This document shows positions 1 to 33,477 of a DNA stretch of 35,090 bases, piece by piece. Numbering within the stretch: position 1 is the stretch's first letter; each line of letters starts with the position of its first letter. The DNA comes from a virus (taxonomy: Duplodnaviria; Heunggongvirae; Uroviricota; Caudoviricetes): the IMG/VR virus record IMGVR_UViG_2671180963_000003; one strand, 5' to 3'. The notes under the pieces were generated by a model. That model saw nothing but the letters and a program-made list of their open reading frames with translations. It was not told the DNA's origin and did not search any database. The position numbers and the translations under genes are program-made.

Positions 1-94
1 AACGCGTTATAAATAAATGTATGAAGGGTGTTGAACGGGTCAACGCCTACGGGGGAGAACATCCCCCGCTTAACTTTTAAGAGGATATAAAACT

Positions 95-379
95 ATGGCT
101 ACTTTTATTACCTATGCTGTCATCATTACTATTCTGGCTGCTATCTCTGCTTATAAACTCGGAACCGAACCGAAAGAACGAGGCGAATTATTCTTAGGTG
201 CGTTTGTTGCATTTGCTAGCCTTGCGTTAATTGTCGAAGGAATTTCTTATATTGTTGGCCTAGTTAGTATGACACTTTTTAACTTCCATCCAACTATTGC
301 TATGCATTTGATGATGACCGTACTCTGGGTATATTGCTTAATCGAATTTTTAACGTTTGTTTTCAAACAGACTAAATAA
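95..379 (+). CDS. small integral membrane protein, function unknown
   Basis: 94 aa ORF with GAGGA Shine-Dalgarno about 8 nt upstream of the ATG; three hydrophobic stretches consistent with transmembrane helices; it is the only plus-strand gene in the left arm. Confidence 0.45.
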   Translation: MATFITYAVIITILAAISAYKLGTEPKERGELFLGAFVAFASLALIVEGISYIVGLVSMTLFNFHPTIAMHLMMTVLWVYCLIEFLTFVFKQTK

Positions 380-537
380 TAGTGTAATCTGCCTTTTCTC
401 CTTATGGTTATTAACAGGGGATCTTCTTTGAGGATTCCCGATTAAAAGCCATAAAACACACTCCAGTACAGTGTTTTCATAGTCAGTGATCTATACAACA
501 TAAAAACATAACAAGTATAGATTGAGTGTTAATCCTC

Positions 538-564
538 CCGCCCCTTCGGGGCGGTTATTTTTCT
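538..564 (+). terminator. rho-independent terminator (6 bp GC stem, CTTCG loop, T-rich tail)
   Basis: CCGCCC-cttcg-GGGCGG followed by TTATTTTTCT, read directly from the sequence. Confidence 0.5.
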
Positions 565-639
565 GGCTTTAAAGAATAATGTAGCATTATGTTCATTATA
601 ACCTCATCTTTGTTGTGCAAACCTAACCTAAACTTACTA

Positions 640-663
640 GGGACTCTTCGGAGTCCCTTTTTT
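640..663 (+). terminator. rho-independent terminator (7 bp stem, UUCG tetraloop, T6)
   Basis: GGGACTC-ttcg-GAGTCCC followed by TTTTTT; lies 7 nt from the 3' end of the minus-strand gene 670..1011, so it may act in both directions. Confidence 0.55.
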
Positions 664-669
664 ATTGTC

Positions 670-1011
670 TTAAGCAACAAGACGCAATCCTTTGTTTTTC
701 ATCTTCTGTATTTTCTTTTCTTTAACGGACTTTTCTCTATACCCTTTCAATTCTTCAAGTAGTTTAATCTGTTCCCTCAATGATTTCTTGTAGTCTTCTT
801 GCATGGCTTTAAATCCTTCACCAAGTTTCACGTAATTATCATGTAAGGATTTGTACTTTTCCATTAGCTCATTGCATTCTTTCTCTTTAATCGAAAGTTT
901 AATGGTCAAAAATTCACACTCAGCATTAGTCTGTTTTAGCGTTTCAGAAAGAATCATGTTTTTCTCTTTCAGAGTTTTACGGGACAGTGCTTTTTCGTTT
1001 AAAGTTGCCAT
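670..1011 (-). CDS. coiled-coil protein, function unknown
   Basis: 113 aa ORF, K/E-rich heptad-like sequence, GGAG Shine-Dalgarno upstream on the minus strand; follows the 320 aa gene in the same orientation. Confidence 0.5.
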   Translation of the reverse strand: MATLNEKALSRKTLKEKNMILSETLKQTNAECEFLTIKLSIKEKECNELMEKYKSLHDNYVKLGEGFKAMQEDYKKSLREQIKLLEELKGYREKSVKEKKIQKMKNKGLRLVA

Positions 1012-1037
1012 AGTAGGGTCTCCAATTAAATTAAAAA

Positions 1038-2000
1038 TTAAGCTGCTTTGCGAACGTCGAACACATTTTCGAACGCATCAAAAACTTTAACTGTCATTAA
1101 ATCGATGAATTGAACGGAAGAACCATTTTTCTTAATCAGGTATTTGTTCCATTCTGCAACGTCTGCAACAGTACGCTTTTCGTTAAGCAGAATCCAAAGA
1201 GCTTGTTTGTCTTTAGATTCAACCGCTTGAGTAAAGAAGTCTTTAGATTCAACTTCCCGATCTGCTTCAACAGCAACCGGAGCAACTTCTTTAGCTTTCA
1301 GTTCTTCAATCTCAGCTTTCTGTGCTTCGATGATCTGGTCTTTTTCTTTCAGTGCAGCTTTCAGTTCTGCGATCTGTGCTTCCAGTGCAGAGAAACGATC
1401 TTCAACAGCAACCGGAGAAACAGCATTAACCTGTGCTTCCAGTTCTACGAAAGCGTCGCAAGATTCAATACGTGCTTTTTCTTCACCTTCATATGCAACC
1501 AGTTCTACTACTTCTTTCTCAGTAGCGTGGCTGTTAAAGAATACAGCAAAGTAAGGATTGCCGGATTTGGTGAAGTTCAGTTTAGCTTTTCCGGTAACTT
1601 CTTTACGACGACCAAAGGTAATGTTGCAATCAGCGGTATCCTGAAAATCCATGTTAGGAGCGGAAACGATAGCAGTATCACCAGCAATCACTAGGTGGAA
1701 CAGTTCAGAAGAGTTCTTAACGGTGAAAGTAACGATGTGGTCTACTGCAACGTCTTTAGCAGGTTTAACGCGGTCGATTGCTTTACGAATGCCGTTAGGC
1801 AGTTTACCGTCAACACCAAAGCCAGCCGCGATCAGTGCTTCACGATGTGCTTTAAAGCCAGCGAAAGCGGATTTCTGCTGCGCAAAGGAAACATGAGCAA
1901 CAACTTTCGGCTGAATCTTCTTGTTTGCTTCGGTGCCAAATTTGATAACTGCTTTAGCGTTGGTTACTTCGTTAGTGAAAAAGTTAGCGGAAAATAACAT
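1038..2000 (-). CDS. hypothetical protein with a central coiled-coil segment, function unknown
   Basis: 320 aa ORF, AGGAG Shine-Dalgarno upstream on the minus strand; N-terminal domain, central A/E/K-rich coiled coil (AQIAELKAALKEKDQIIEAQKAEIEELKAKE), C-terminal domain; no family recognised by eye. Confidence 0.55.
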   Translation of the reverse strand: MLFSANFFTNEVTNAKAVIKFGTEANKKIQPKVVAHVSFAQQKSAFAGFKAHREALIAAGFGVDGKLPNGIRKAIDRVKPAKDVAVDHIVTFTVKNSSELFHLVIAGDTAIVSAPNMDFQDTADCNITFGRRKEVTGKAKLNFTKSGNPYFAVFFNSHATEKEVVELVAYEGEEKARIESCDAFVELEAQVNAVSPVAVEDRFSALEAQIAELKAALKEKDQIIEAQKAEIEELKAKEVAPVAVEADREVESKDFFTQAVESKDKQALWILLNEKRTVADVAEWNKYLIKKNGSSVQFIDLMTVKVFDAFENVFDVRKAA

Positions 2001-2044
2001 TATAAATACTCCTGTGGAAAGTTAGTTTTAATTGTTCATTTCAA

Positions 2045-2082
2045 GCCTCCCTTGTTGCAGCAAAGGAGGCTTTTTCTTTTTT
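2045..2082 (+). terminator. hairpin followed by T-run (terminator-like, plus-strand polarity)
   Basis: GCCTCC...GGAGGC imperfect long hairpin followed by TTTTTCTTTTTT; it sits in the 5' leader region of the minus-strand 320 aa gene, so its role is ambiguous. Confidence 0.3.
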
Positions 2083-2114
2083 AAAGCCATCATATAATTC
2101 TCAGTGAAAGTGGA

Positions 2115-2294
2115 TTAACAAACTTGAACGTTAATCTTTACCTGAATTTCGTATTTCTTCATTAGCTTGTAGAATCCGCTTCTATCAATTCCTTCCTTCT
2201 TAAAGAAGTTTTCCCCGCCTCGCTCAGTGTCGCTGTAAAAGCGTTTAGCAATATCAACAATCATTTCACGAGTGAACTTAACAGGTCTAGCCAT
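2115..2294 (-). CDS. small HTH DNA-binding protein (paralog of 5690..5917)
   Basis: ATG at 2294 with GAGGA 9 nt upstream; the ORF track began at an upstream GTG. Motif RPVKF...DIAKRFY...GIDRSGFYKLMKKY aligns with the 76 aa protein RPARF...DIAYAYY...GISIAQFYKNMKKL. Confidence 0.5.
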   Translation of the reverse strand: MARPVKFTREMIVDIAKRFYSDTERGGENFFKKEGIDRSGFYKLMKKYEIQVKINVQVC

Positions 2295-2395
2295 CAGTCG
2301 ATTCCTCACATGTGGATTAATAATTTCTTAAAAAGAGCATTTCGCTCTGAACACTTGTATTTATAAAATGATTTTCAGAAAACCCTGTAAAACCA

Positions 2396-2411
2396 CTGTA
2401 TATCCGATCAG
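2396..2411. promoter_or_regulatory. LexA (SOS) box-like site CTGT-N8-TCAG
   Basis: CTGTATATCCGATCAG; matches the CTGT-N8-ACAG consensus with one mismatch; abuts a candidate leftward promoter. Confidence 0.35.
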
Positions 2412-2480
2412 TGGGAGCACGAATTGCTAAAGAGAAGATTAATTATTAATCAATTCGTACAATATTCAACCGAAAAAGCA

Positions 2481-2496
2481 CTGTATATCTAACCAG
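2481..2496. promoter_or_regulatory. LexA (SOS) box-like site CTGT-N8-CCAG
   Basis: CTGTATATCTAACCAG; the first 12 nt are nearly identical to the site at 2396. Confidence 0.35.
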
Positions 2497-2498
2497 TG

Positions 2499-2514
2499 CT
2501 GTATGAATTAGCAG
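2499..2514. promoter_or_regulatory. LexA box-like site CTGT-N8-GCAG
   Basis: CTGTATGAATTAGCAG, immediately adjacent to the previous site. Confidence 0.25.
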
Positions 2515-2635
2515 TGAATCAGGAGATTTTCAGAAGTGAACAATCATTTCACACATGTATTTATAACGTGGAAATTCTTGCTTATCATCTATATGGGGAC
2601 TGTTTAGAAAATTTCAACCCCCACCAGTGAGAAAA

Positions 2636-2664
2636 AGTATAAAATAATCCTTGACAGTTGTCAA
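2636..2664 (-). promoter_or_regulatory. sigma70-like leftward promoter (TTGACA-17-TATACT)
   Basis: On the minus strand, TTGACA (2664..2659), a 17 nt spacer, TATACT (2641..2636); the -35 is one half of the palindrome TTGACAgtTGTCAA (2651..2664). Confidence 0.5.
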
Positions 2665-2859
2665 TACACTTGACCCAAGCGAGAAATGACTATCAAAATT
2701 TTTGTTTGAAAATGGTAGATCAGGATTATCAACCTTTATAACCTATTATAGCACGGAGACCTTTTGACAATTCTTTTTAAATCATTAACTTACGCCACTT
2801 TTTGGTGATTTTTTGATTAAATAATATACAAGAATTTTCTATCAAAATATTTGATGGGA

Positions 2860-3056
2860 ATTGCCCCTGAAATTCTGAATTTTTGCCCCCGAATAAAATC
2901 CCCAAGATTCTACTATCCCATTTTTGCCCCTGAAACCTACTATTTTTGCCCCTGAAATTCTGGGAAACAGTGATTTTGCCCCTCATTTTTGCCCCTGAAA
3001 TGCCAATAATTGCCCCTGAAAATCTAATTTTTGCCCCTGAAATTTGCCCCCGAAAA
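2860..3056 (+). repeat. array of about 9 direct repeats of TTGCCCCTGAAA (variants TTGCCCCCGAA) plus one inverted copy near 3100
   Basis: Copies start near 2860, 2883, 2924, 2946, 2977 (truncated), 2988, 3010, 3031 and 3045; GGGGCAAAA in inverted orientation at about 3100; an AT-rich segment precedes the array at 2800-2858. Confidence 0.8.
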
Positions 3057-3459
3057 GGATTGGTGAGAAAAACTCTTTATAAAACATTAAATTAGTGAGG
3101 GGCAAAAGCGGGTGATGCGGCGTACATAGATATTATATAACACATTCGCTACGCTCATGTGTAAAACTAAAAACAACAAATAACCAGAAAGATATTAGGA
3201 GGGCTTTAGCCCGACTGCGCGAAGCGCCAACCAATTGCTTCTAGTAACAACTAATTTAAACTAGATGATACTAGATGGTCTTAGAAGGAATTAACTAGTT
3301 TGCTCGCTCGCTTCGCTCACTCTCAAACGTCTGCGACGCCACTGCGTGGCATCGAGAATCACTTCTGAAAGGATTTTCTCGAAAGGGATTTTAAACTAGT
3401 TACTAACTGATTCTAGAAAGATAGTAATAATCACTTTAATGATCATGAAAGGTATTGGT

Positions 3460-3488
3460 ATCCCTTCGGGATTGCAACCTTCGGTTGC
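3460..3488 (+). other. two tandem short hairpins with CTTCG loops (possible RNA structure or weak terminators)
   Basis: ATCCcttcgGGAT and GCAACcttcgGTTGC in tandem, followed by a T-rich tract. Confidence 0.3.
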
Positions 3489-3686
3489 TAAATTGCTTCC
3501 TGATTATTATTTCTCCAAAAGAAAGATTCTTATATTCTAAAGATACTTCTTCGTTTTGACGATGATTTAATCAAAAATCATGAAGGAGGCGAAGCCGACT
3601 GAATCCAATCACCTTTCATAATAACAAGAATTTTCTCTTTATAAATAATATTAGATTGATTCACTTTCTTTTTAGAGGATACCACT

Positions 3687-4127
3687 ATGATCAATACTAA
3701 AACTCCTTTCGTACTTCTGGGTCTGGACTCTGAAAACTACGGCAACTTCCATATGCTAGAAGTTTTCGCTAATCGTGGTTATAACATCATTCGTCATTCC
3801 GAAGACTCCAACTACTCAACTGCTTTCTACGCTTTAAAACGAAATGGTCGTCCTACTGTGATCATCGACTGTCTTACTGATGAAGGTCGTCTTCAATACA
3901 ACGATATTCCAGCAATTATTGTTCGTGATGACCTGCCGTTTGATGTTCGTGAATACGACGTTGATTTAGGCTCTTACTATGGGATCGCCGATCTTGACCA
4001 GATTATGGCTGATTACGGTAAAGAAACCGCTCAGGAAGCCCCGGAAGATGACGAAGACTACGCTCCAATCTGTTTCTCTTCTCAGAATGGCTTCTACGGT
4101 TACGATGAAGGCTTAGATATGCTGTAA
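3687..4127 (+). CDS. strongly acidic early protein, function unknown (possible DNA-mimic/anti-restriction candidate)
   Basis: 146 aa ORF, AGAGGA Shine-Dalgarno; about 27 Asp/Glu versus about 10 Lys/Arg; first rightward gene after the large control region. Confidence 0.55.
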   Translation: MINTKTPFVLLGLDSENYGNFHMLEVFANRGYNIIRHSEDSNYSTAFYALKRNGRPTVIIDCLTDEGRLQYNDIPAIIVRDDLPFDVREYDVDLGSYYGIADLDQIMADYGKETAQEAPEDDEDYAPICFSSQNGFYGYDEGLDML

Positions 4128-4149
4128 GTTAGGTCAACCCTTTGGCATC

Positions 4150-4169
4150 TTGTCAAGGGGTATTGACAA
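4150..4169. promoter_or_regulatory. palindromic operator-like site TTGTCAA-N6-TTGACAA overlapping a promoter -35
   Basis: Perfect 7 bp inverted repeat with a 6 bp spacer; its right half-site is the -35 of the promoter at 4163-4191. Confidence 0.4.
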
Positions 4170-4191
4170 AATTTTATGACTTTTTTATGAT
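4163..4191 (+). promoter_or_regulatory. sigma70-like rightward promoter (TTGACA-17-TATGAT)
   Basis: TTGACA at 4163-4168, 17 nt spacer, TATGAT at 4186-4191; further TTGACA/TTGACC motifs at 4200 and 4217 suggest tandem promoters. Confidence 0.5.
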
Positions 4192-4247
4192 TATCGCACT
4201 TGACAACTTTGAACCTATTTGACCTAGATTTGTAAAGAGAATGTAAC

Positions 4248-4397
4248 ATGAAAGAATTTACCATCACTAAATCCCTGTATGACTGGACTGTTAAAATCTC
4301 CGGCAAAACCGTTTCTGTAACCCCTAGCCATGTAGAAAATGATTGGGTGTATCCCGTGAAACTATCTCCCGTAGTATGCATGTTCCGTTTGATCTGA
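4248..4397 (+). CDS. small ORF (49 aa), hypothetical
   Basis: ATG at 4248 downstream of the promoter; weak Shine-Dalgarno; absent from the ORF track because of its size; overlaps the next ORF by 22 nt in another frame. Confidence 0.25.
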   Translation: MKEFTITKSLYDWTVKISGKTVSVTPSHVENDWVYPVKLSPVVCMFRLI

Positions 4398-4579
4398 TGT
4401 CCTTAACTGGTATTCATGCAATGCTGGAAGTTCGCGAGCAATTCGAAGCTGGTAATCACAATGCAACTCCAGTTAGCAATCACCTTCTTACTAATGAAGA
4501 ACGTGAAATCATCGAAAACTGGCGTTATGAATATGCGATTCCTTATTATGAAGAAGACCAAGTAGAAATCGATTGGTAA
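4376..4579 (+). CDS. small acidic protein, hypothetical
   Basis: ATG at 4376 in the frame of the 4343..4579 track ORF (which starts at a TTG); no clear Shine-Dalgarno, so it may be translationally coupled or frameshifted to the preceding small ORF. Confidence 0.35.
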   Translation: MHVPFDLMSLTGIHAMLEVREQFEAGNHNATPVSNHLLTNEEREIIENWRYEYAIPYYEEDQVEIDW

Positions 4580-4668
4580 TAAATTTCTATTATAAATAAA
4601 ATTGTTCCGGTGGTGATGCCGGAACTAGGAGGACCAAATCATTAAACCGTTTAAGGGGAATTTTTACT

Positions 4669-5496
4669 ATGAATACTGTTACCGTTATGAATACTGCTAA
4701 AACTGCTTCCGTGTCTCTGGTTGTTGATAACACCAAACCGCTGACCATGTCTTCTCGTCAGATCGCTGAATTTGTTGATAAGCGCCATGATAACGTTGTT
4801 CGCGATATTCGTAAGATGCTGAACGAGTTAGAAAAAGATGTCCTCAAATTTGAGGGCATCTATCTTGACCAATATGGACGCGAGAAAATCGAATATCACT
4901 TAGACGAAGAAATGACTCTGACTCTTGTCACTGGTTACGATGTTAAGCGTCGAATGATCGTTATTCAGGAATGGAAGCGACTGAAAGAAGAAAATGAAAA
5001 ACTGCGTTCTCAGCAAATCAACCCTTACGCAAACATGACTAAGCTCGACTGGATTCGTGAGGCAATGGAATTGGAAGCCGCAAACGAACAACTGATTCAA
5101 GAAAAGAAACAACTGGTTGAATTGCATGTTCGTAAAGCTATCGACACACACAGTCTTAGCCGCTTATTAGGCGAAAAACGAGGCTCTACGACGGTACAAA
5201 TGATTCTGAAAGGTTTATGTGCTGCTGGTGTTCTTGAGCGTCGTCTGGATGCTTCTGGTAAGCCTAAAGGCTATGATCTGCTTCCTCCTGGCTATATGTT
5301 CGCTCGTATGTCGGCACACGGTCAGATCGAGTTCACTGCTGATGCTATCCCGCATCTCGTAAAACTCGGATTGCTTGAAGAAGAAAAGGCCGCAACTTTG
5401 AAATTGCCACAGCCGAACAACTCACGAGCAATCATTAATAACACTGCTTTGCTGATTCGTCAGAATGCTGGCTCTCTGGAAGTCTTCGGACTGTAA
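4669..5496 (+). CDS. Rha-family phage regulatory protein (antirepressor-like)
   Basis: N-terminal motif LTMSSRQIAEFVDKRHDNVVRDIRKM resembles the Rha domain signature as recalled from memory; 275 aa; AAGGGG Shine-Dalgarno. Confidence 0.6.
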   Translation: MNTVTVMNTAKTASVSLVVDNTKPLTMSSRQIAEFVDKRHDNVVRDIRKMLNELEKDVLKFEGIYLDQYGREKIEYHLDEEMTLTLVTGYDVKRRMIVIQEWKRLKEENEKLRSQQINPYANMTKLDWIREAMELEAANEQLIQEKKQLVELHVRKAIDTHSLSRLLGEKRGSTTVQMILKGLCAAGVLERRLDASGKPKGYDLLPPGYMFARMSAHGQIEFTADAIPHLVKLGLLEEEKAATLKLPQPNNSRAIINNTALLIRQNAGSLEVFGL

Positions 5497-5504
5497 TAAT
5501 TTTT

Positions 5505-5529
5505 GCCCCTGAATTTCAGGGGCTTTTTT
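5505..5529 (+). terminator. rho-independent terminator built from the repeat motif
   Basis: GCCCCTG-aattt-CAGGGGC followed by TTTTTT immediately after the Rha-like gene; the stem contains the same GCCCCTGAA motif as the repeat array. Confidence 0.7.
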
Positions 5530-5689
5530 GTATCTGTAGATGCGCTGAACTTTAAGCGCATCCCTCCAGATTTGGATGCATCTATAGATCAGTCCAGATT
5601 TGGACTCAACTTAGAGATGAGCGCAGTTTTGCGCCGATTGTTTTACATACAAAAAAGCCACTCCGAAGAGTGGCAAAGAGAATCAAAAC

Positions 5690-5917
5690 TCAAAAACCTG
5701 TTGCTTCTACGATCTGACCATCACCGATCTGAACATAGAATTTAATGTCTAACTTCTTCATATTCTTATAGAATTGGGCGATTGAGATCCCATGTTCACT
5801 AAGAATCTGTTCTTTCGCTTCCTTACCACGATCCGCTGTATAATAAGCGTAGGCAATATCAGCCATTTGTTCAGCGTTAAAACGGGCAGGGCGACCGCGA
5901 GTAGCTTTAGTAGTCAT
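5690..5917 (-). CDS. small HTH DNA-binding protein (paralog of 2115..2294)
   Basis: Likely start ATG at 5917 (GGAG 9 nt upstream) rather than the track's GTG at 5950; ends with a Hin/resolvase-like HTH, GISIAQFYKNMKKL. Confidence 0.5.
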   Translation of the reverse strand: MTTKATRGRPARFNAEQMADIAYAYYTADRGKEAKEQILSEHGISIAQFYKNMKKLDIKFYVQIGDGQIVEATGF

Positions 5918-5952
5918 AGTCATTTTCTCCAAATTAAAGTGAATGTTCACCT

Positions 5953-6555
5953 TTATTTAGAGGACTTACATTTTATCGGAAAAAGTTCTCCATCGTCAAC
6001 CGACATAAAGAACTCTGCCTTAATCCCGTACTTCTTCAACCGTGAATAGTATGTACCCCGACTAATATCAACCTTGCGAAGCACTTCAAAGAACCCTTTA
6101 GGATCGTTGTAATAGTGGCTATAACGCACGTTAGCGAGTTCAACGAATAGTTCCCTTGTATCACCATAGCCTTTCTTGAAAGCCTCGTTACGATAGCGTG
6201 TAATTGCGTGATTCAATCTCTTCTGTTTCAACACTTCTCGGATCGGCTTCCACTGCAACCGATAGATAGGACCGTCATCAATGCGATAATAACGCTTGAT
6301 ATCAAAATCAAACCAATCTCGGACTCTCCGAAACTCTGTATGCGATGTTCTATGCTTCTTAAAGAAGTTGTGAACGTCTGTATAACCATTATCACGGTAA
6401 AATTCTATTAAAATCTCTTTCGCTTCCTCACGGCTAAAACCGGATGTTGTGTAATCAGTCTTTAAGTGCTTATGTTTTACTGGCAAACGATATTCATGAT
6501 CGGTACAAGACAAGGCTAATTCTAATTCATCTCTTTGTTGCTGATTAATTAGCAT
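5953..6555 (-). CDS. basic protein with HTH-like segments, function unknown
   Basis: 200 aa, AAGGGGG Shine-Dalgarno; C-terminal [16 protein letters not shown] resembles the HTH of the two small paralogs; antisense to the flanking Rha-like and terminase genes. Confidence 0.55.
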
Positions 6556-6642
6556 ACAACCCCCTTAAATCTTAATACCCGTATTTATCAAAAAATCAAC
6601 AATTTAATAAATACCTTCATATTTCGTAATGAGGGTAATTAC

Positions 6643-8550
6643 ATGAAACTAATTTCTAATAAGGCCAAATTAAAAAAGATTCTCAAAAATGCAGCCAAAT
6701 ATATTACGCCACCGCCTAAACTCCTTCCATCGGAATGGTGCGAAGCTAATATGGTGCTGGTAGATGGTCCTCAAGCTGGGGATAAAGTTAAATTGCTGTC
6801 ATTCCAGAAAGGTATGATTGATGCTCCTTTCCTTGAGAACAAGAAAAAGTATGTTCTGATGACCAGTGCGCAGATCGGAAAGACTACCATCTTGAACGGC
6901 ATCCTGTTTAACCAGATGGCTAACGATCCATGCAATATGATTATCGGACAATCAACCGCTAAAGAAATGTCTCAATATCTCGCTGGTAAGATCCGACCGT
7001 CTATCGAAGCATGTGATGCATTAAAAGACGTGGTTACAGACAAGAATGATCGCAATGCGGTTAACAACAATAACCAGCTACAGCTAAAAACGAATCACTT
7101 CCTGTACATGGTATCGCTAACCAGTCCATCGACCCTGCGCGGTAAGACTGCAAAGGTCGGACTACTAGACGAAATCGATGCTGCTACAGCCTCAGAAGAA
7201 GGTGATCCGGTGGCACTGGCTGCTAACCGTTTAACTACCTTTGGCGACGAAGGCCGATTAGTCGTATCCAGTACCCCGACCAGTAAGCTGGGAAGCATTA
7301 ACCAGCAATGGTTATCAAGCGATATGCGTATGTTTTTTGTTCCGTGTCCTCATTGCGGGGAACACCAGGTGATCGAGTGGGAAAACGTTCAATTTGAATG
7401 GCGTAACATCGATGGTAAGAACTTACCCGATCCTGATACCGCTCGTTATATTTGCCCCCACTGTAAGAACGCATGGACAGAAGGAGAGCGGATCAGGGCG
7501 GTGGCTGCTGGTGAATGGCGAGTAACCCGTGAAAGTGAAGTAGCCGGATTCTGGATCAGCCGTCTGTATTCACCATTCAGCACGATCCGCGCTTGTGTGG
7601 TTGATTTTAGTCATGCGTGGCAATCCTTTGATCTACAATCATTTTATAACACCGTGTTAGGCAAGGTATACGACGATCAGGACACGGCAGTAGAAGCAAA
7701 TGAACTGGAACAACTCAAAACAGATGTTTCTATCGAGAATATCCCTGATGACGTGATTTTCTTGTGTTCAGGAATTGACCAGCAATTGGACCGCGCAGAA
7801 TCTACCATCTTAGGTGTAGCGAAAGATAAGGTTTACATTCTGGATCACCGCAGCTTTTACGATCATAACTGTGAACGATATGAATCACCTGTTTGGGATC
7901 GCCTGGTTAACTTCAAGAAAACCAAATTCTATAACGTTAATGGTGAACGTGTACCAATGCTCGCCAGCTTCCTTGATACATCGAACGGTCGATTCACTCA
8001 AGCCGGATACCGTATTTGCGGCAAGTGGAAGAATCTACACGCGATCAAAGGTAGTTCATCTGGTAATGCTCCAGTGATTCCGGTTAAACCTACCCGCACA
8101 GGTGGTCATGAATTGCTTATGCTGGGTGTTAACGTTGGTAAATCCGCTGTTCGTGAAATGCTGGTTAGAAACCTGAAAGATAATCCTCATATTGGCTTAG
8201 AAATATCAGAAACCGTTCCTGATGATTATCTCGATCAGCTTTTGAGTGAATCCATCAAGCGTACTACTACTGGCGTGCGTTGGGTGAAAAATCCAGGTAG
8301 TACCCGAAACGAGGCTCTCGACTGTCTGGTTTATAGCTATGCTGCTTCTCGCTACGTTCTTTCAAAAATGTCATGGGATAAACTCATTGCAATGAAAGAC
8401 AGCTTAAACCGTGTTGTCGAAGAATCCGTAGAAGCTCCTAAATCGCAATCTGACGAGCAAATAGAAGAAACTAAGCCAATCACACGACCACAACGTCAAA
8501 ACATCGCCAGACGTCCAAATAGAGGCCGTAGCTGGGTAACATCGTTCTAA
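6643..8550 (+). CDS. terminase large subunit (lambda GpA-like)
   Basis: 635 aa; Walker A-like SAQIGKTT near residue 75; paired Cys motif CPHCG...CPHCKNAW typical of GpA-type terminases; sits at the head of the morphogenesis module; GAGGG Shine-Dalgarno. Confidence 0.8.
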
Positions 8551-31748: not shown

Positions 31749-33428
31749 TTAAATTCCAAATTCCTGTAATGGACCTGGTATTTCCTCTTCTGGTTTCCAG
31801 TTCTTATCTGTCAGCATGTCTAAACATGGATGCAGAACAAGCCCGTTGCTCTCCAGAATCTGCCTATCATTGATAGTTTTCAAATCAATGAATATCCGGC
31901 CTTTCCTCGTTCCTCTTGAATTTTCTATTACAACTCTCTGGGTCTTTCCATCGATGTATTCCAGTACAAACAAGTTTTTGTTTCTGTCAATCCTGCTACA
32001 CCCGATCCGCTTTAGAGCTTGCTTAATCTTAAACCGGACCTTTAGTCGTTCCTCGTTATAAACATCTTCTAAATCAAATTCTGCGAGCTTCTCCCAGCCT
32101 TGAGAGTCCACAGAATACATTTCCTCTTCTGCCATCTTGATCTGATTGTAGAGTGTTTCACGCTCGCTATTGAGGGTAGTAATCTGATCGGCTAGCTCCT
32201 TCGTTGCTCCTGTCATAGCAGAAAGGGCAATCAGGTTATCAATCTTGCGTGATATTTCATCAACCTGTACTTTCAAAGCCGGAACCGGATTAGCCTTGTC
32301 CTCAGCAATCCAGATTTTATCAGCCAGCAATTGCAATACAGCTTTCTCTAATTGATCACCTCGAAAACTCCAGTTTGGATGCTCGCAATCAAGTCTACGT
32401 GAACGGGTCGCATCACATGTATAACGATACTGGTCAGAACGTTTGTTCGTTCCCTTCACTTTAACCATAGCGCAACCGCAATGATCACATTTCAATAGGC
32501 CAATACCACTAAGCAGGGGGATCGGTTTAACTTCTTCCTTCTCTCCAAAGTTCCATGCTCTAGCACCAATATTTTTCTTAAGGTGATAGAACGTAGCATC
32601 ATCAATAACACGAGGGTAATAATCCTTTAACTCATAGTTAACGCCATCTACAGAGACTTCCTTGATACCAATCAAAGCGCGGGTATGGAACAACCTTTCA
32701 ACCATTGCCCGTGACCATTTTGAATGCTTCTTGTTGCTTACTGCTGGTGGCGGTGTATATGTCTCGTTAAGGTGATCCAGTATTTCGGCGGTTGAACGTC
32801 CATTCTTCCGTAATTCCACAATCTCCTGAACAACAGGGAAGTACACCGGATGAGGCAACACATAACCGGAAGTGGTATCAGTCCACCACATATTCTTTCC
32901 AACTTCCTCGATAGCCACTGCCGGATTTTGTGGATTTTCTTGATGAGCTTTAATCTTAATCAATGCGCTTGAGTTAGTACGATTGCGCTTAGTCTGGCTT
33001 TCCTCATTACCACGGATGAATAAAAGGATGGAGAACATCAGGTCCATCGGGTTAGCGGTAACAGTATCCAGCGAGTAGATCTTGTTATCCATGCCAGTAA
33101 CAATGGTTATTCCCCTACGGATGATTGAAAGGAATAACTCCTGCGCACTGACAATATCGGCACGGGATAAGCGGTCCAAGTTTTCAATGAATAGCCAGCT
33201 ACCAACAGGAACGGATCTACCAATTGCATCAAGGAAACGAGATAGCGCCCCTGTTTTAGAGTTAGCACCCTTAAACGCAGATACACCCAGATCCTGATAA
33301 TCATTTACCAGTTCAAGGTCATACTTTGTCGCAACCTCTCTCGCCATCCTGATTTGTCGTTCATAACTCGAACCATCATTCTGACGCATAGACGAGAAGC
33401 GAATATACGAATACAGTTTAGTTTTCAT
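31749..33428 (-). CDS. large serine recombinase (integrase-like)
   Basis: N-terminal YSYIRFSSMRQ...ERQ and DRLSR resemble the serine recombinase catalytic motifs; Cys cluster CDHCGCAM...C..C; C-terminal coiled coil; 559 aa from ATG 33428 (the track began at an upstream TTG). Confidence 0.8.
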   Translation of the reverse strand: MKTKLYSYIRFSSMRQNDGSSYERQIRMAREVATKYDLELVNDYQDLGVSAFKGANSKTGALSRFLDAIGRSVPVGSWLFIENLDRLSRADIVSAQELFLSIIRRGITIVTGMDNKIYSLDTVTANPMDLMFSILLFIRGNEESQTKRNRTNSSALIKIKAHQENPQNPAVAIEEVGKNMWWTDTTSGYVLPHPVYFPVVQEIVELRKNGRSTAEILDHLNETYTPPPAVSNKKHSKWSRAMVERLFHTRALIGIKEVSVDGVNYELKDYYPRVIDDATFYHLKKNIGARAWNFGEKEEVKPIPLLSGIGLLKCDHCGCAMVKVKGTNKRSDQYRYTCDATRSRRLDCEHPNWSFRGDQLEKAVLQLLADKIWIAEDKANPVPALKVQVDEISRKIDNLIALSAMTGATKELADQITTLNSERETLYNQIKMAEEEMYSVDSQGWEKLAEFDLEDVYNEERLKVRFKIKQALKRIGCSRIDRNKNLFVLEYIDGKTQRVVIENSRGTRKGRIFIDLKTINDRQILESNGLVLHPCLDMLTDKNWKPEEEIPGPLQEFGI

Positions 33429-33440
33429 ACCATTTCCAAA

Positions 33441-33477
33441 CAAAAACGCCCCTACCGCGTATTATAACGATAGGGGC
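33441..33477 (-). terminator. rho-independent terminator (minus strand) upstream of the recombinase
   Basis: GCCCCTA(c)CG ... CG(a)TAGGGGC hairpin with a U-run on the minus strand; the loop contains TTATAAT. Confidence 0.5.

Follow-up and report, generated by a model that had tools for sequence, protein, structure and literature searches.

What is the function of a leftward operon near the left end of a prophage, and why does a transcription terminator that points the opposite way lie inside it? The locus that raises these questions occupies the first kilobases of the IMG/VR virus record IMGVR_UViG_2671180963_000003 (35,090 nt; "the window" hereafter denotes this whole stretch), a near-complete temperate siphovirus-type prophage of Escherichia coli. 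An initial annotation had noted here two co-oriented minus-strand genes of unknown function, for proteins of 320 and 113 amino acids (aa). Both open reading frames (ORFs) are present, each with an ATG start codon and a Shine-Dalgarno motif, and 26 nt separate them; the coordinates of all features are collected in Table 1. The comparison with a set of 35 related loci, including loci from IMG/VR and from metagenomes, points to the 320-aa protein as a probable repeat-binding protein and, more tentatively, as a replication initiator.

Homologues of 305–344 aa, with 34–52% identity and the same domain order, support the minus-strand frame of the 320-aa ORF, and eight near relatives do so for the 113-aa protein. 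Two long plus-strand ORFs inside the 320-aa gene, at 1110–1694 and 1695–1997, were rejected as shadow frames. The operon starts one gene earlier, with a gene for a 59-aa basic, helix-turn-helix (HTH)-like protein (a candidate Cro/CopB-like regulator), so that its order is leader, 59-aa gene, a short control element, 320-aa gene and 113-aa gene. In every related locus, the 59-aa gene (53–100% identity) lies directly upstream of the control element. The synteny of 59-aa gene, control element and cargo gene, that is, the 320-aa gene or its counterpart, holds even where the cargo is only 34–52% identical, and was found in 26 IMG/VR loci and seven of the nine metagenome loci. A cargo gene of one of three types is present in 35 of 35 loci.

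The 320-aa protein had been described as a coiled-coil protein. This applies to residues ~197–237 (a long helix, 199–236, in the AlphaFold model), but the coiled coil follows a basic, beta-rich N-domain (residues ~1–160, isoelectric point (pI) 9.8; beta-rich to ~155 in the model) and an acidic linker, and is itself followed by a small helical C-domain that ends RKAA. The N-domain exists in three types: type A (MLFSAN...) in the window, type B (MKNSKR..., MKNSKRITFNLF...), which has no detectable similarity to type A, and type C in locus L004, which is 35% identical to type A. All three types are basic (pI 9.7–9.8), and acidic segments come next.

About 0.9 kb upstream of the 320-aa gene lies an array of short direct repeats (iterons), with spacings of 22, 41, 22, 30, 13, 21, 21 and 13 bp. 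In the related loci the repeats fall into three classes, with the core CAGGGGCAA in the 17 loci with a type A N-domain, the core TAGTGTAGG in the 17 loci with type B, and the core ATCTAGGGG in the one locus with type C (AATCTAGGGGA repeats in L004). Altogether, the repeat class matches the N-domain type in 35 of 35 loci. The comparison of the window with the type-B loci L010, L012 and L015 delimits the exchanged DNA: these loci are 88–98% identical outside of two blocks, one with the genes (664–1999) and one with the iterons (2857–3361). The 857 bp between the two blocks, which comprise the control element, the HTH gene, the leader, the promoters and an AT-rich stretch, are ~90% identical. The same two-block swap recurs in a second HTH-gene background (L031 versus L032), and the gene types for the HTH, 146-aa, Rha, 78-aa, 86-aa, 200-aa and TerS proteins were each found with both repeat classes. 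The divergence is also graded: L003, with a protein 52% identical to the 320-aa protein, has GAGGGGCAAAAA iterons, and L004, with a 35% identical protein, has a more different repeat. Because the repeat class tracks the N-domain type while the neighbours reassort, the N-domain probably binds the upstream iterons. The 320-aa protein, which had been listed as of unknown function, still matches no family, but the co-variation thus gives it a probable job, namely sequence-specific repeat binding.

The array also has origin-like features. Its spacings are mostly 21–22 or 41–43 bp, and it adjoins an AT-rich spacer, a candidate DNA-unwinding region; by spacing and GC content, the helical phasing and the adjacent AT-rich stretch are thus present as for iteron initiators. 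In L016, L022 and L025, the promoter-proximal edge of the A-type array carries one or two B-like (AGTGTAGG) or C-like (TCTAGGGG) cores, ~700–770 nt upstream of the hairpin element, which may be scars of past cassette exchange. Inverted A-type cores (TTTGCCCCTGAA/TTCAGGGGCTTT) also occur in the terminator after the Rha gene (5498–5530); this site was rejected as an operator, since it is present in type-B loci too. DnaA boxes are not enriched in the window, where one conserved copy with one mismatch was found (2311–2319). In L003, an insertion of ~200 nt between the HTH gene and the hairpin element (positions 5680–5870 of that locus) contains three perfect DnaA boxes (TTATCCACA) in one orientation. 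Beyond the array, ~500 nt of non-coding DNA upstream of the 146-aa gene (3100–3620) hold many short hairpins, UUCG loops on the plus strand and TCTAG(T/A) repeats. Positions 3061–3361 belong to the swapped iteron block and the remainder of this stretch to the conserved backbone; it could be an origin-associated element or a structured leader RNA.

If the N-domain reads the iterons, what controls the gene? The control element between the 59-aa and the 320-aa gene occurs in every related locus, irrespective of the type of protein encoded downstream; as far as the start codon at 2000, type-A and type-B loci share ~90% identity in it. In gene sense it reads ...TGAGAATTATATGATGGCTTTAAAAA-N-AAAAA, a GC-rich hairpin, a mini-ORF and ...AACTAAC...AGGAGTATTTATAATG, whose final ATG is that of the 320-aa gene. 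Read on the opposite strand, it consists of TATAAATAC, a spacer of ~35 nt, the hairpin, and two runs of five or six T separated by one other base. The initial annotation had assigned plus-strand terminator polarity to the hairpins of this region, and this is borne out: the hairpins at 2043–2072, 639–658 and 538–554 have terminator polarity on the plus strand only, and the bases that come after them on the minus strand are UGAAAUGAAC, UAGUAAGUUU and GAGGAUUAAC, respectively. However, its view that the hairpins flank the operon is correct only for the one at 639–664, at the edge; the hairpin at 2043–2072 lies inside the operon, with the 59-aa gene upstream of it.

The strandedness of the internal hairpin was judged from the folding energy of each variant. 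In seven of eight variants the imperfect pairs are C·A on the gene strand and G·U on the antisense strand, and the antisense-strand hairpin is 2.5–7 kcal/mol more stable. The imperfect pairs are distributed over three stem positions, and in L004 one position is fully compensated. Across the family, selection has thus favoured a hairpin in RNA made from the antisense strand, and the element is very probably a real terminator for rightward transcription.

The 5' end of such a rightward transcript might lie near the start codon of the 320-aa gene, where a −10-like motif on the plus strand is kept in all relatives, 33–41 nt before the hairpin. An RNA from ~2014 to ~2082 is predicted to fold as a 5' stem-loop plus the terminator, and would be complementary to the mini-ORF and its Shine-Dalgarno motif. 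The mini-ORF itself is retained in 11 of 11 sequence versions, always with a Shine-Dalgarno motif, a spacer of 5–9 nt, an ATG, one or two codons and an in-frame stop, whereas its codons vary (MNN, MKH, MKN, MTH or MT). Since the frame is kept while the codons differ, it appears that translation of the mini-ORF, and not its product, matters. A small protein encoded across the hairpin (MALKKKKPP...) was rejected, as its frame is broken in L003. Judged from these features, a countertranscript of ~70 nt is slightly preferred to a fail-safe insulator. In the insulator reading, to which we give nearly an even chance, the element would stop plus-strand RNA that escapes the terminators at 538–664 before it enters the promoter and repeat region.

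These downstream terminators and the RNA that precedes them were examined in the same way. Terminator-like sites are not more frequent in positions 1–4000 than expected by chance (six found versus 3.5 ± 1.9 expected), and the hairpins are considered real because they are conserved with compensatory changes in the relatives. T2, which was known to the initial annotation, has three covarying pairs, and T1, which had been missed, has compensatory changes in L003, L004, L024 and L031. The folding z-scores of the three terminators range from −3.2 to −3.8 versus shuffled sequences. The region from 371 to 663 is 91–98% identical between loci that have unrelated flanking genes on either side, and 380–537 is 98% identical between types A and B. 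In an alignment of 15 sequences, 97% of the cells are paired in the predicted plus-strand structure. Double changes occur at 18 pairs of 380–664, compared to 3.8 ± 1.6 in shuffled alignments (none of 500 reached 18) and at most four when the partners were slid, and the helix 412–426/430–444 shows covariation at eight of 13 pairs. That the plus strand is the one that folds is indicated by invariant G·U pairs in 380–664, which would be mismatches on the minus strand. Thus, the plus-strand RNA of 380–664 is real as a structured element, although no Rfam family matches in positions 1–6700. The proposal of the initial annotation, insulation against antisense transcription or a plus-strand small RNA (sRNA) between 380 and 663, is thereby substantiated as far as a conserved, covarying plus-strand RNA is concerned; for this RNA both an independent sRNA and the 3' untranslated region of the rightward unit of TerS and membrane-protein genes could apply, and for the internal terminator both an insulator and an antisense RNA stand. 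A canonical terminator of its own was not found for the minus-strand operon.

Transcription of the operon would start in the leftward promoter region that had been assumed upstream of the genes. The best sigma-70-like promoter there (11 of 12 matches) is accompanied by further −10-like motifs, and its −35 element lies inside the palindrome TTGACAACTGTCAA (2651–2664; also at 4160–4188). This palindrome is kept as TTGAC-N4-GTCAA in L003 and L004, does not differ between cassette types, and probably serves the phage repressor as its main operator. In addition, the leader contains three sites that resemble LexA boxes. Scored with a matrix derived from 20 SOS boxes of E. coli in the literature, these are the three top-scoring sites of the window, and the one at 2479–2498 lies within the range of the training set (12.9–24.3 bits) and exceeds the 95th percentile for shuffled windows (17.1 bits). 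The boxes are kept in L004 and most type-B loci and are missing from the loci with a 313-aa variant of the cargo protein. SOS control of the operon is plausible by these scores. The fourth-best LexA score (12.2 bits) belongs to a perfect CTGT-N8-ACAG palindrome, GGCTGTTAAAGAATACAGCA, inside the 320-aa gene (1529–1548), maybe by chance. Also in the leader, 11 nt after a TATAAAT motif, is a sense-strand hairpin followed by T5 (AGAGC-GAAAT-GCTCT-TTTTT; 2333–2347, minus strand), whose changes in L003, L004 and L007 are compensatory and which may act as an attenuator or as a 5' stabiliser.

The −10-like motif on the start codon is one of nine copies in the window of the sequence (G/T)TATTTATAA (in the direction of the gene, TTATAAATA(C/A)), which lie within intergenic DNA or border on it. 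All nine are found in the first 6.7 kb and none in the late region of 28 kb. The copies aim at the following gene, with the sole exception of the copy at 2000–2009, which is aimed the opposite way. The domain of the 59-aa protein also recurs, in three paralogous copies elsewhere in the window. The ~55-aa HTH-like domain is found once in a 75/86-aa protein (5690–5917, minus strand) and twice in a 200-aa protein (5953–6555, minus strand). The two genes form a leftward pair just before the terminase gene; the proteins match no known family and are candidate phage repressors. Around some copies of the motif the likeness is longer (5–25 versus 2548–2568; 2351–2366 versus 2551–2566), which suggests duplicated promoters or else operators for these HTH paralogues.

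The codon usage of the cargo gene is exceptional. We calculated the frequency of optimal codons (Fop) from the standard list of optimal codons of E. coli. The value of 0.80 for the 320-aa gene is the highest among 33 genes of the window, compared to 0.70 for the capsid gene, 0.76 for the major tail gene and 0.50–0.56 for the operon partners. The cargo genes of other loci have values of 0.85 (type B), 0.85 (L003), 0.77 (the 313-aa variant) and 0.72 (L004), and their neighbours 0.39–0.62; over all types, the operon partners range from 0.39 to 0.56. Because Fop is very high, the 320-aa protein is needed in large amounts, and its gene is not a recent AT-rich moron.

The C-terminal parts of the operon proteins vary as well. 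The C-domain is of one kind (WNKYL...[K/E/R]AA) in the window, L003, L004 and L007, and of a second, acidic kind elsewhere, which ends ...GTNFSYCQ in the common 313-aa variant or ...YAYAA in type B. The 113-aa protein, a candidate accessory partner, is basic and helical (coiled-coil-like) and ends GLRLVA. Its slot is occupied by proteins of 113, 77, 80 or 305 aa that are otherwise dissimilar and all end [K/R]xxLR[L/I/V]VA, and loci with the 313-aa variant lack the gene. The tails -AA and -LVA are similar to ssrA-like ClpXP signals, and by this analogy might be proteolysis signals. On an ENA scaffold of 1549 nt (L006), the protein P0123 has an ORF6N N-terminus in frame with the coiled coil and C-domain known from the 320-aa protein, with the same 113-aa gene and terminators downstream. 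The scaffold contains Ns and the codon usage shifts at the junction; P0123 may be a natural domain swap or an assembly chimera.

Searches for a protein family gave next to nothing. Profiles of Pfam, PHROG, NCBIfam and PADLOC yielded only coiled-coil noise for the 320-, 113- and 59-aa proteins and their relatives; the PADLOC defence models gave no match for the 320-aa protein and coiled-coil noise for the 113-aa protein (E 0.014–0.034). Neither cargo type nor the 59-aa protein was matched by tblastn in 50,697 phage records and 72,556 plasmids, and no plasmid in PLSDB uses either protein type. A profile search of the PDB returned a weak match only (E 0.004), of the coiled-coil region to a putative TBPIP-family protein. 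A HMMER search of 1.84 billion representatives found 12 relatives of the 320-aa protein, one of which (P0132), a repetitive secreted protein, was judged spurious, and a search with the C-domain only returned one fragment. ANT, KilA-C, Bro-N and ORF6N domains were detected neither in the 320-aa protein nor in its homologues P0121, P0122, P0127 and P0129; ORF6N was found only in the possibly chimeric P0123. As the initial annotation had expected, the 320-aa protein therefore stands outside the well-characterised families, and the identities considered for it then (annealing protein, scaffold or Abi-like protein) received no support from profile or fold searches. A role as TerS, binding cos or pac repeats, was rejected as well, because TerS is a separate 184-aa protein (phrog_57) whose gene does not co-vary with the repeats.

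Which process would the repeat-binding protein serve? Among the 47 window proteins scanned there is no recognisable replication gene, yet every member of the prophage group has a cargo gene and a matching array next to an AT-rich stretch. For this reason we regard it as possible, with a chance somewhat below even, that the early operon is a replication initiator with an adjacent origin, under the control of a repressor plus a countertranscript. In this scheme, the basic N-domain would recognise the iterons beside the AT-rich stretch, the coiled coil would oligomerise the protein, and the C-domain, possibly together with the 113-aa partner, would recruit other factors; protein, partner and array together would make up the initiator and origin of the phage. 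Control might be exerted in four layers. Transcription from the leftward promoter would be gated by the palindromic operator and probably also by LexA; the 59-aa HTH protein would be a co-transcribed regulator; the internal terminator would most likely end an antisense RNA of ~70 nt, started at the TATAAAT motif and covering the mini-ORF, by the logic of CopA, tap and repA in plasmid R1; and the C-terminal -AA and -LVA tails might allow proteolysis. The tandem terminators T1 and T2 would end the convergent transcript of the TerS and membrane-protein genes and thereby shield the operon. We do not claim membership of a known initiator family, only that the system would work like one. The bolder proposal, that the 320-aa, type-B and type-C proteins form a new class of initiators with swappable, unprecedented N-domains on a common coiled-coil chassis, made in capsid-like amounts under a plasmid-style circuit wired to LexA, is doubtful.

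Several points weigh against the initiator scheme. Homology to known initiator families (winged-helix domains; lambda O, Rep_3/RepA-pi-TrfA) was found neither by sequence nor by fold; three fold searches on two structure models of moderate confidence (pLDDT, the predicted local distance difference test score, of 57 and 68) gave no credible match; and neither protein type occurs in a plasmid or a sequenced phage. Very high codon adaptation is unusual for initiators, and an array bound by an abundant protein could serve regulation and not replication. The co-variation comprises three classes only and could also arise from ancestral linkage of the flanks with exchange of the middle segment alone; this account would, however, need a middle swap in each background while every other neighbour reassorted. 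As to the control circuit, the internal hairpin of the window is itself 2.5 kcal/mol weaker on the plus strand. The hairpin of the window and L023 is the exact inversion of the commonest variant, with the T-tract still on the plus strand. The motif at 2000–2009 has no −35 element and could instead be a binding site for an HTH paralogue. Of the LexA-like boxes only one scores like a strong genuine site, and they flank the candidate start sites (20–130 nt downstream or ~50 nt upstream) and do not overlap them. Moreover, the boxes and the gene downstream of the cargo are dispensable for the core function, because the loci with the 313-aa variant lack both.

The best surviving alternative, though unlikely, keeps the iteron binding and assigns it a purpose other than replication: the 320-aa protein would be a type-specific transcriptional regulator or silencer of the early region, comparable to a determinant of heteroimmunity, or a superinfection-exclusion factor by which homologous DNA of incoming phages is titrated or blocked. 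The same co-variation of protein and repeats fits this alternative, and it is in immunity regions that swapped cassettes of protein and site are classically seen; divergent early transcription units flank the array, high abundance suits a protein that coats a DNA array, and the 320-aa protein would resemble the Mu repressor in having a DNA-binding domain at the N-terminus, then a coiled coil and a degron at the C-terminus. However, the palindromic operator over the best promoter is identical in all types, so that immunity seemingly does not reside in the repeats, and there is no overlap between the array and any recognisable promoter. Real LexA boxes would mean that the 320-aa protein is off in the lysogen, which is an ill fit to a maintenance repressor or an exclusion factor. 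Such a binder would also leave the phage without a candidate initiator.

An SOS-controlled antirepressor of the P22 immI or 186 Tum type is clearly improbable. The operon would then be silenced by LexA, the 320-aa protein, made once DNA is damaged, would bind and inactivate the prophage repressor, and the 59-aa protein and the antisense RNA would correspond to Arc and sar. In agreement with this, the leader has LexA-like boxes, the order of a small DNA-binding protein, an antisense-oriented terminator and a ~300-aa protein is that of arc-sar-ant (with a ~70-nt antisense RNA between the genes, here predicted), the AA and LVA tails suggest short-lived regulators, and in P0123 the same coiled coil and C-domain are joined to ORF6N, a domain that antirepressors typically have. 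The immI operon of P22 is silent in the lysogen. However, the 320-aa protein gives no signal of any of the antirepressor domains, P0123 comes from a 1.5-kb scaffold with Ns and may be chimeric, the boxes are missing from the 313-aa-variant loci, and a Rha/Ant-like protein is already encoded at 4669–5496. It is the DNA repeats that track the protein type, whereas the regulators encoded within 4 kb (59-aa, 86-aa, 200-aa and Rha) do not, as would be expected of a repressor gene. Nor would an antirepressor be expected to have an extreme codon adaptation, with Fop values of 0.72–0.85, above the capsid gene.

Accessory cargo of a moron or defence type, with the hairpins as insulators against rightward read-in and the link to the repeats as inherited linkage only, is the least likely reading: the slot is variable in N-domains, C-domains and the genes downstream, lies 1–2 kb from the prophage end, where accessory genes gather, and is faced by two tandem terminators at the convergent TerS/membrane-protein unit, but the cargo is core-like in its presence in all 35 loci, has no PADLOC match and the highest, not moron-like, codon adaptation of the phage, was exchanged together with a non-adjacent cassette in two backgrounds, and is preceded by an internal terminator with a conserved −10-like motif and mini-ORF.

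The organisation proposed for the initiator and origin has counterparts in known replication systems. In the cro-cII-oop-O-P region of lambda, as here, a small HTH regulator comes first and is followed by a ~300-aa protein with an iteron-specific N-domain (in O; predicted in our case), the C-terminal part of which is free to bind a partner encoded just downstream, and a short antisense RNA, encoded beside the 5' end of the initiator gene, stops at an intrinsic terminator within the operon (also predicted in our case). Lambda relatives exchange phage-type-specific pairs of initiator and iterons as cassettes; the specificity of iterons and O proteins in lambdoid phages is reportedly the subject of one paper (PMC7466680). 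In contrast to lambda, there is no similarity to O or P in sequence or fold, the iterons of the window lie upstream of the gene and not inside it, a cII-like gene is missing, the antisense RNA would be complementary to the initiator gene's own leader, the gene downstream of the initiator is optional, and the leader has LexA-like boxes.

In the copB-copA-tap-repA region of plasmid R1, a small repressor gene is transcribed together with the initiator gene that follows it, the leader in between encodes a cis-antisense RNA that has a terminator of its own, and the stretch covered by this RNA includes a short leader frame, tap, the translation but not the product of which matters (PMC5717011). The window has a small gene, an antisense-oriented terminator and a leader mini-ORF in the same order. 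However, its mini-ORF has only 2–3 codons and ends 29 nt before the start codon, the antisense promoter is a candidate, and neither the 59-aa protein and CopB nor the 320-aa protein and RepA are homologous; R1 has its origin, oriR1, downstream of repA and is without iterons of this type. The order of elements also corresponds to that of plasmid pMV158, in which origin repeats and a promoter are followed by copG, the intergenic antisense RNAII and repB, with dual control by a protein and an RNA (PMC5717011; PMC4485353). RepB is a rolling-circle nuclease of the HUH type, whereas the 320-aa protein has neither an HUH motif nor the fold, and host range and type of element differ.

If the 320-aa protein is an initiator, it would represent a new protein family and a DNA-recognition domain that is invisible to homology-based annotation, and three natural specificity variants with their cognate sites would be at hand for swap experiments; the cassette logic could yield orthogonal pairs of origin and initiator. 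The control element would be a rare phage case of plasmid-like countertranscript control, with an antisense terminator, a mini-ORF and a small repressor, maybe coupled to the SOS response. Should the LexA wiring be true, DNA damage would directly license replication of the prophage. RNA-end mapping would have concrete targets in the RNA of 380–664 and in the putative antisense RNA of ~70 nt.

Table 1. Features of the operon, its control regions and the surrounding prophage (positions in the window; minus, leftward).
Feature	Position	Strand	Remarks
320-aa gene	1038–2000	minus	ATG start, Shine-Dalgarno
113-aa gene	670–1011	minus	ATG start, Shine-Dalgarno
59-aa gene	2115–2294	minus	MARPVKFTRE...; ORF and ribosome-binding site; first gene of operon
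Control element	2001–2114		114 nt, between 59-aa and 320-aa genes
Internal intrinsic terminator	2043–2082	plus	stem 2043–2072 (12 bp, interrupted), 6-nt loop, TTTTTCTTTTTT at 2071–2082; antisense to operon
Leader mini-ORF	2028–2039	minus	ATG-AAC-AAT-TAA; GGGAGG Shine-Dalgarno is the 3' arm of the hairpin in sense RNA
TTATAAATAC motif (TATAAAT)	2000–2009	plus	−10-like, on 320-aa start codon; possible antisense-RNA promoter
Copies of the motif	7–16, 2000–2009, 2357–2366, 2557–2566, 3639–3648, 4590–4599, 4685–4694, 6581–6590, 6605–6614
Three LexA-box-like sites	2394–2413, 2479–2498, 2497–2516		operon leader; 13.0, 18.8 and 12.6 bits; CTGTAT-N7-CAG
Best leftward sigma-70-like promoter	2664–2636	minus	TTGACA-17-TATACT
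AT-rich spacer	2665–2859		195 bp, 29% GC, adjoins iterons; two ~20-nt repeats (CTATCAAAAT..TTTG)
Iteron array	2860–3055 direct, 3094–3106 inverted		nine copies of TTTGCCCCTGAAA (gene sense TTTCAGGGGCAAA) and one inverted copy
Structured RNA	380–537	plus	best-supported helix 412–426/430–444
Terminator T1	538–563	plus	CCGCCCC-TTC-GGGGCGG (538–554) and T-run
Terminator T2	639–664	plus	GGGACTC-TTCG-GAGTCCC (639–658) and T6; 5 nt from 113-aa stop codon
94-aa membrane-protein gene	95–379	plus	rightward, after TerS gene
TerS gene	just left of window		left prophage end; 184 aa, phrog_57, E 1e-11
TerL gene	6643–8550		GpA-like large terminase
Large serine recombinase gene	31749–33443	minus

The prophage that carries the locus also encodes portal, capsid and tail proteins, a tape measure protein and an endolysin. 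A complete relative is ~36.6 kb long, and its insertion splits ycdX; a literature search for a prophage in ycdX returned nothing relevant. Similar DNA was found in 63 of 5,426 complete E. coli genomes, chromosomal every time, so that the group is present in ~1% of the complete E. coli genomes and, in addition, in many Shigella sonnei assemblies. One genome contains a remnant of only ~6 kb, in hicB, in which the two-gene locus, situated 1–2 kb from the left prophage end, is still retained. No cultured member of the group was found among the 50,697 phage records searched: the sole megablast match of positions 1–4000 to the phage collection is a hairpin of 38 nt, and the terminase is at most 43% identical to any deposited phage terminase.

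Two features of the left end stand apart. The TerS gene is ~7 kb away from the TerL gene, with the whole early and regulatory region in between, which is unusual for a terminase of the GpA (lambda-like) type. The 94-aa membrane-protein gene that follows it is a variable cassette between conserved flanks (1–78 and 371–663). In other loci its slot holds a 33-aa peptide (L003) or two peptides of 56–57 aa (L014), all of them hydrophobic. The same structured RNA follows every variant peptide, an arrangement with a faint likeness to modules of a small toxin and an RNA.

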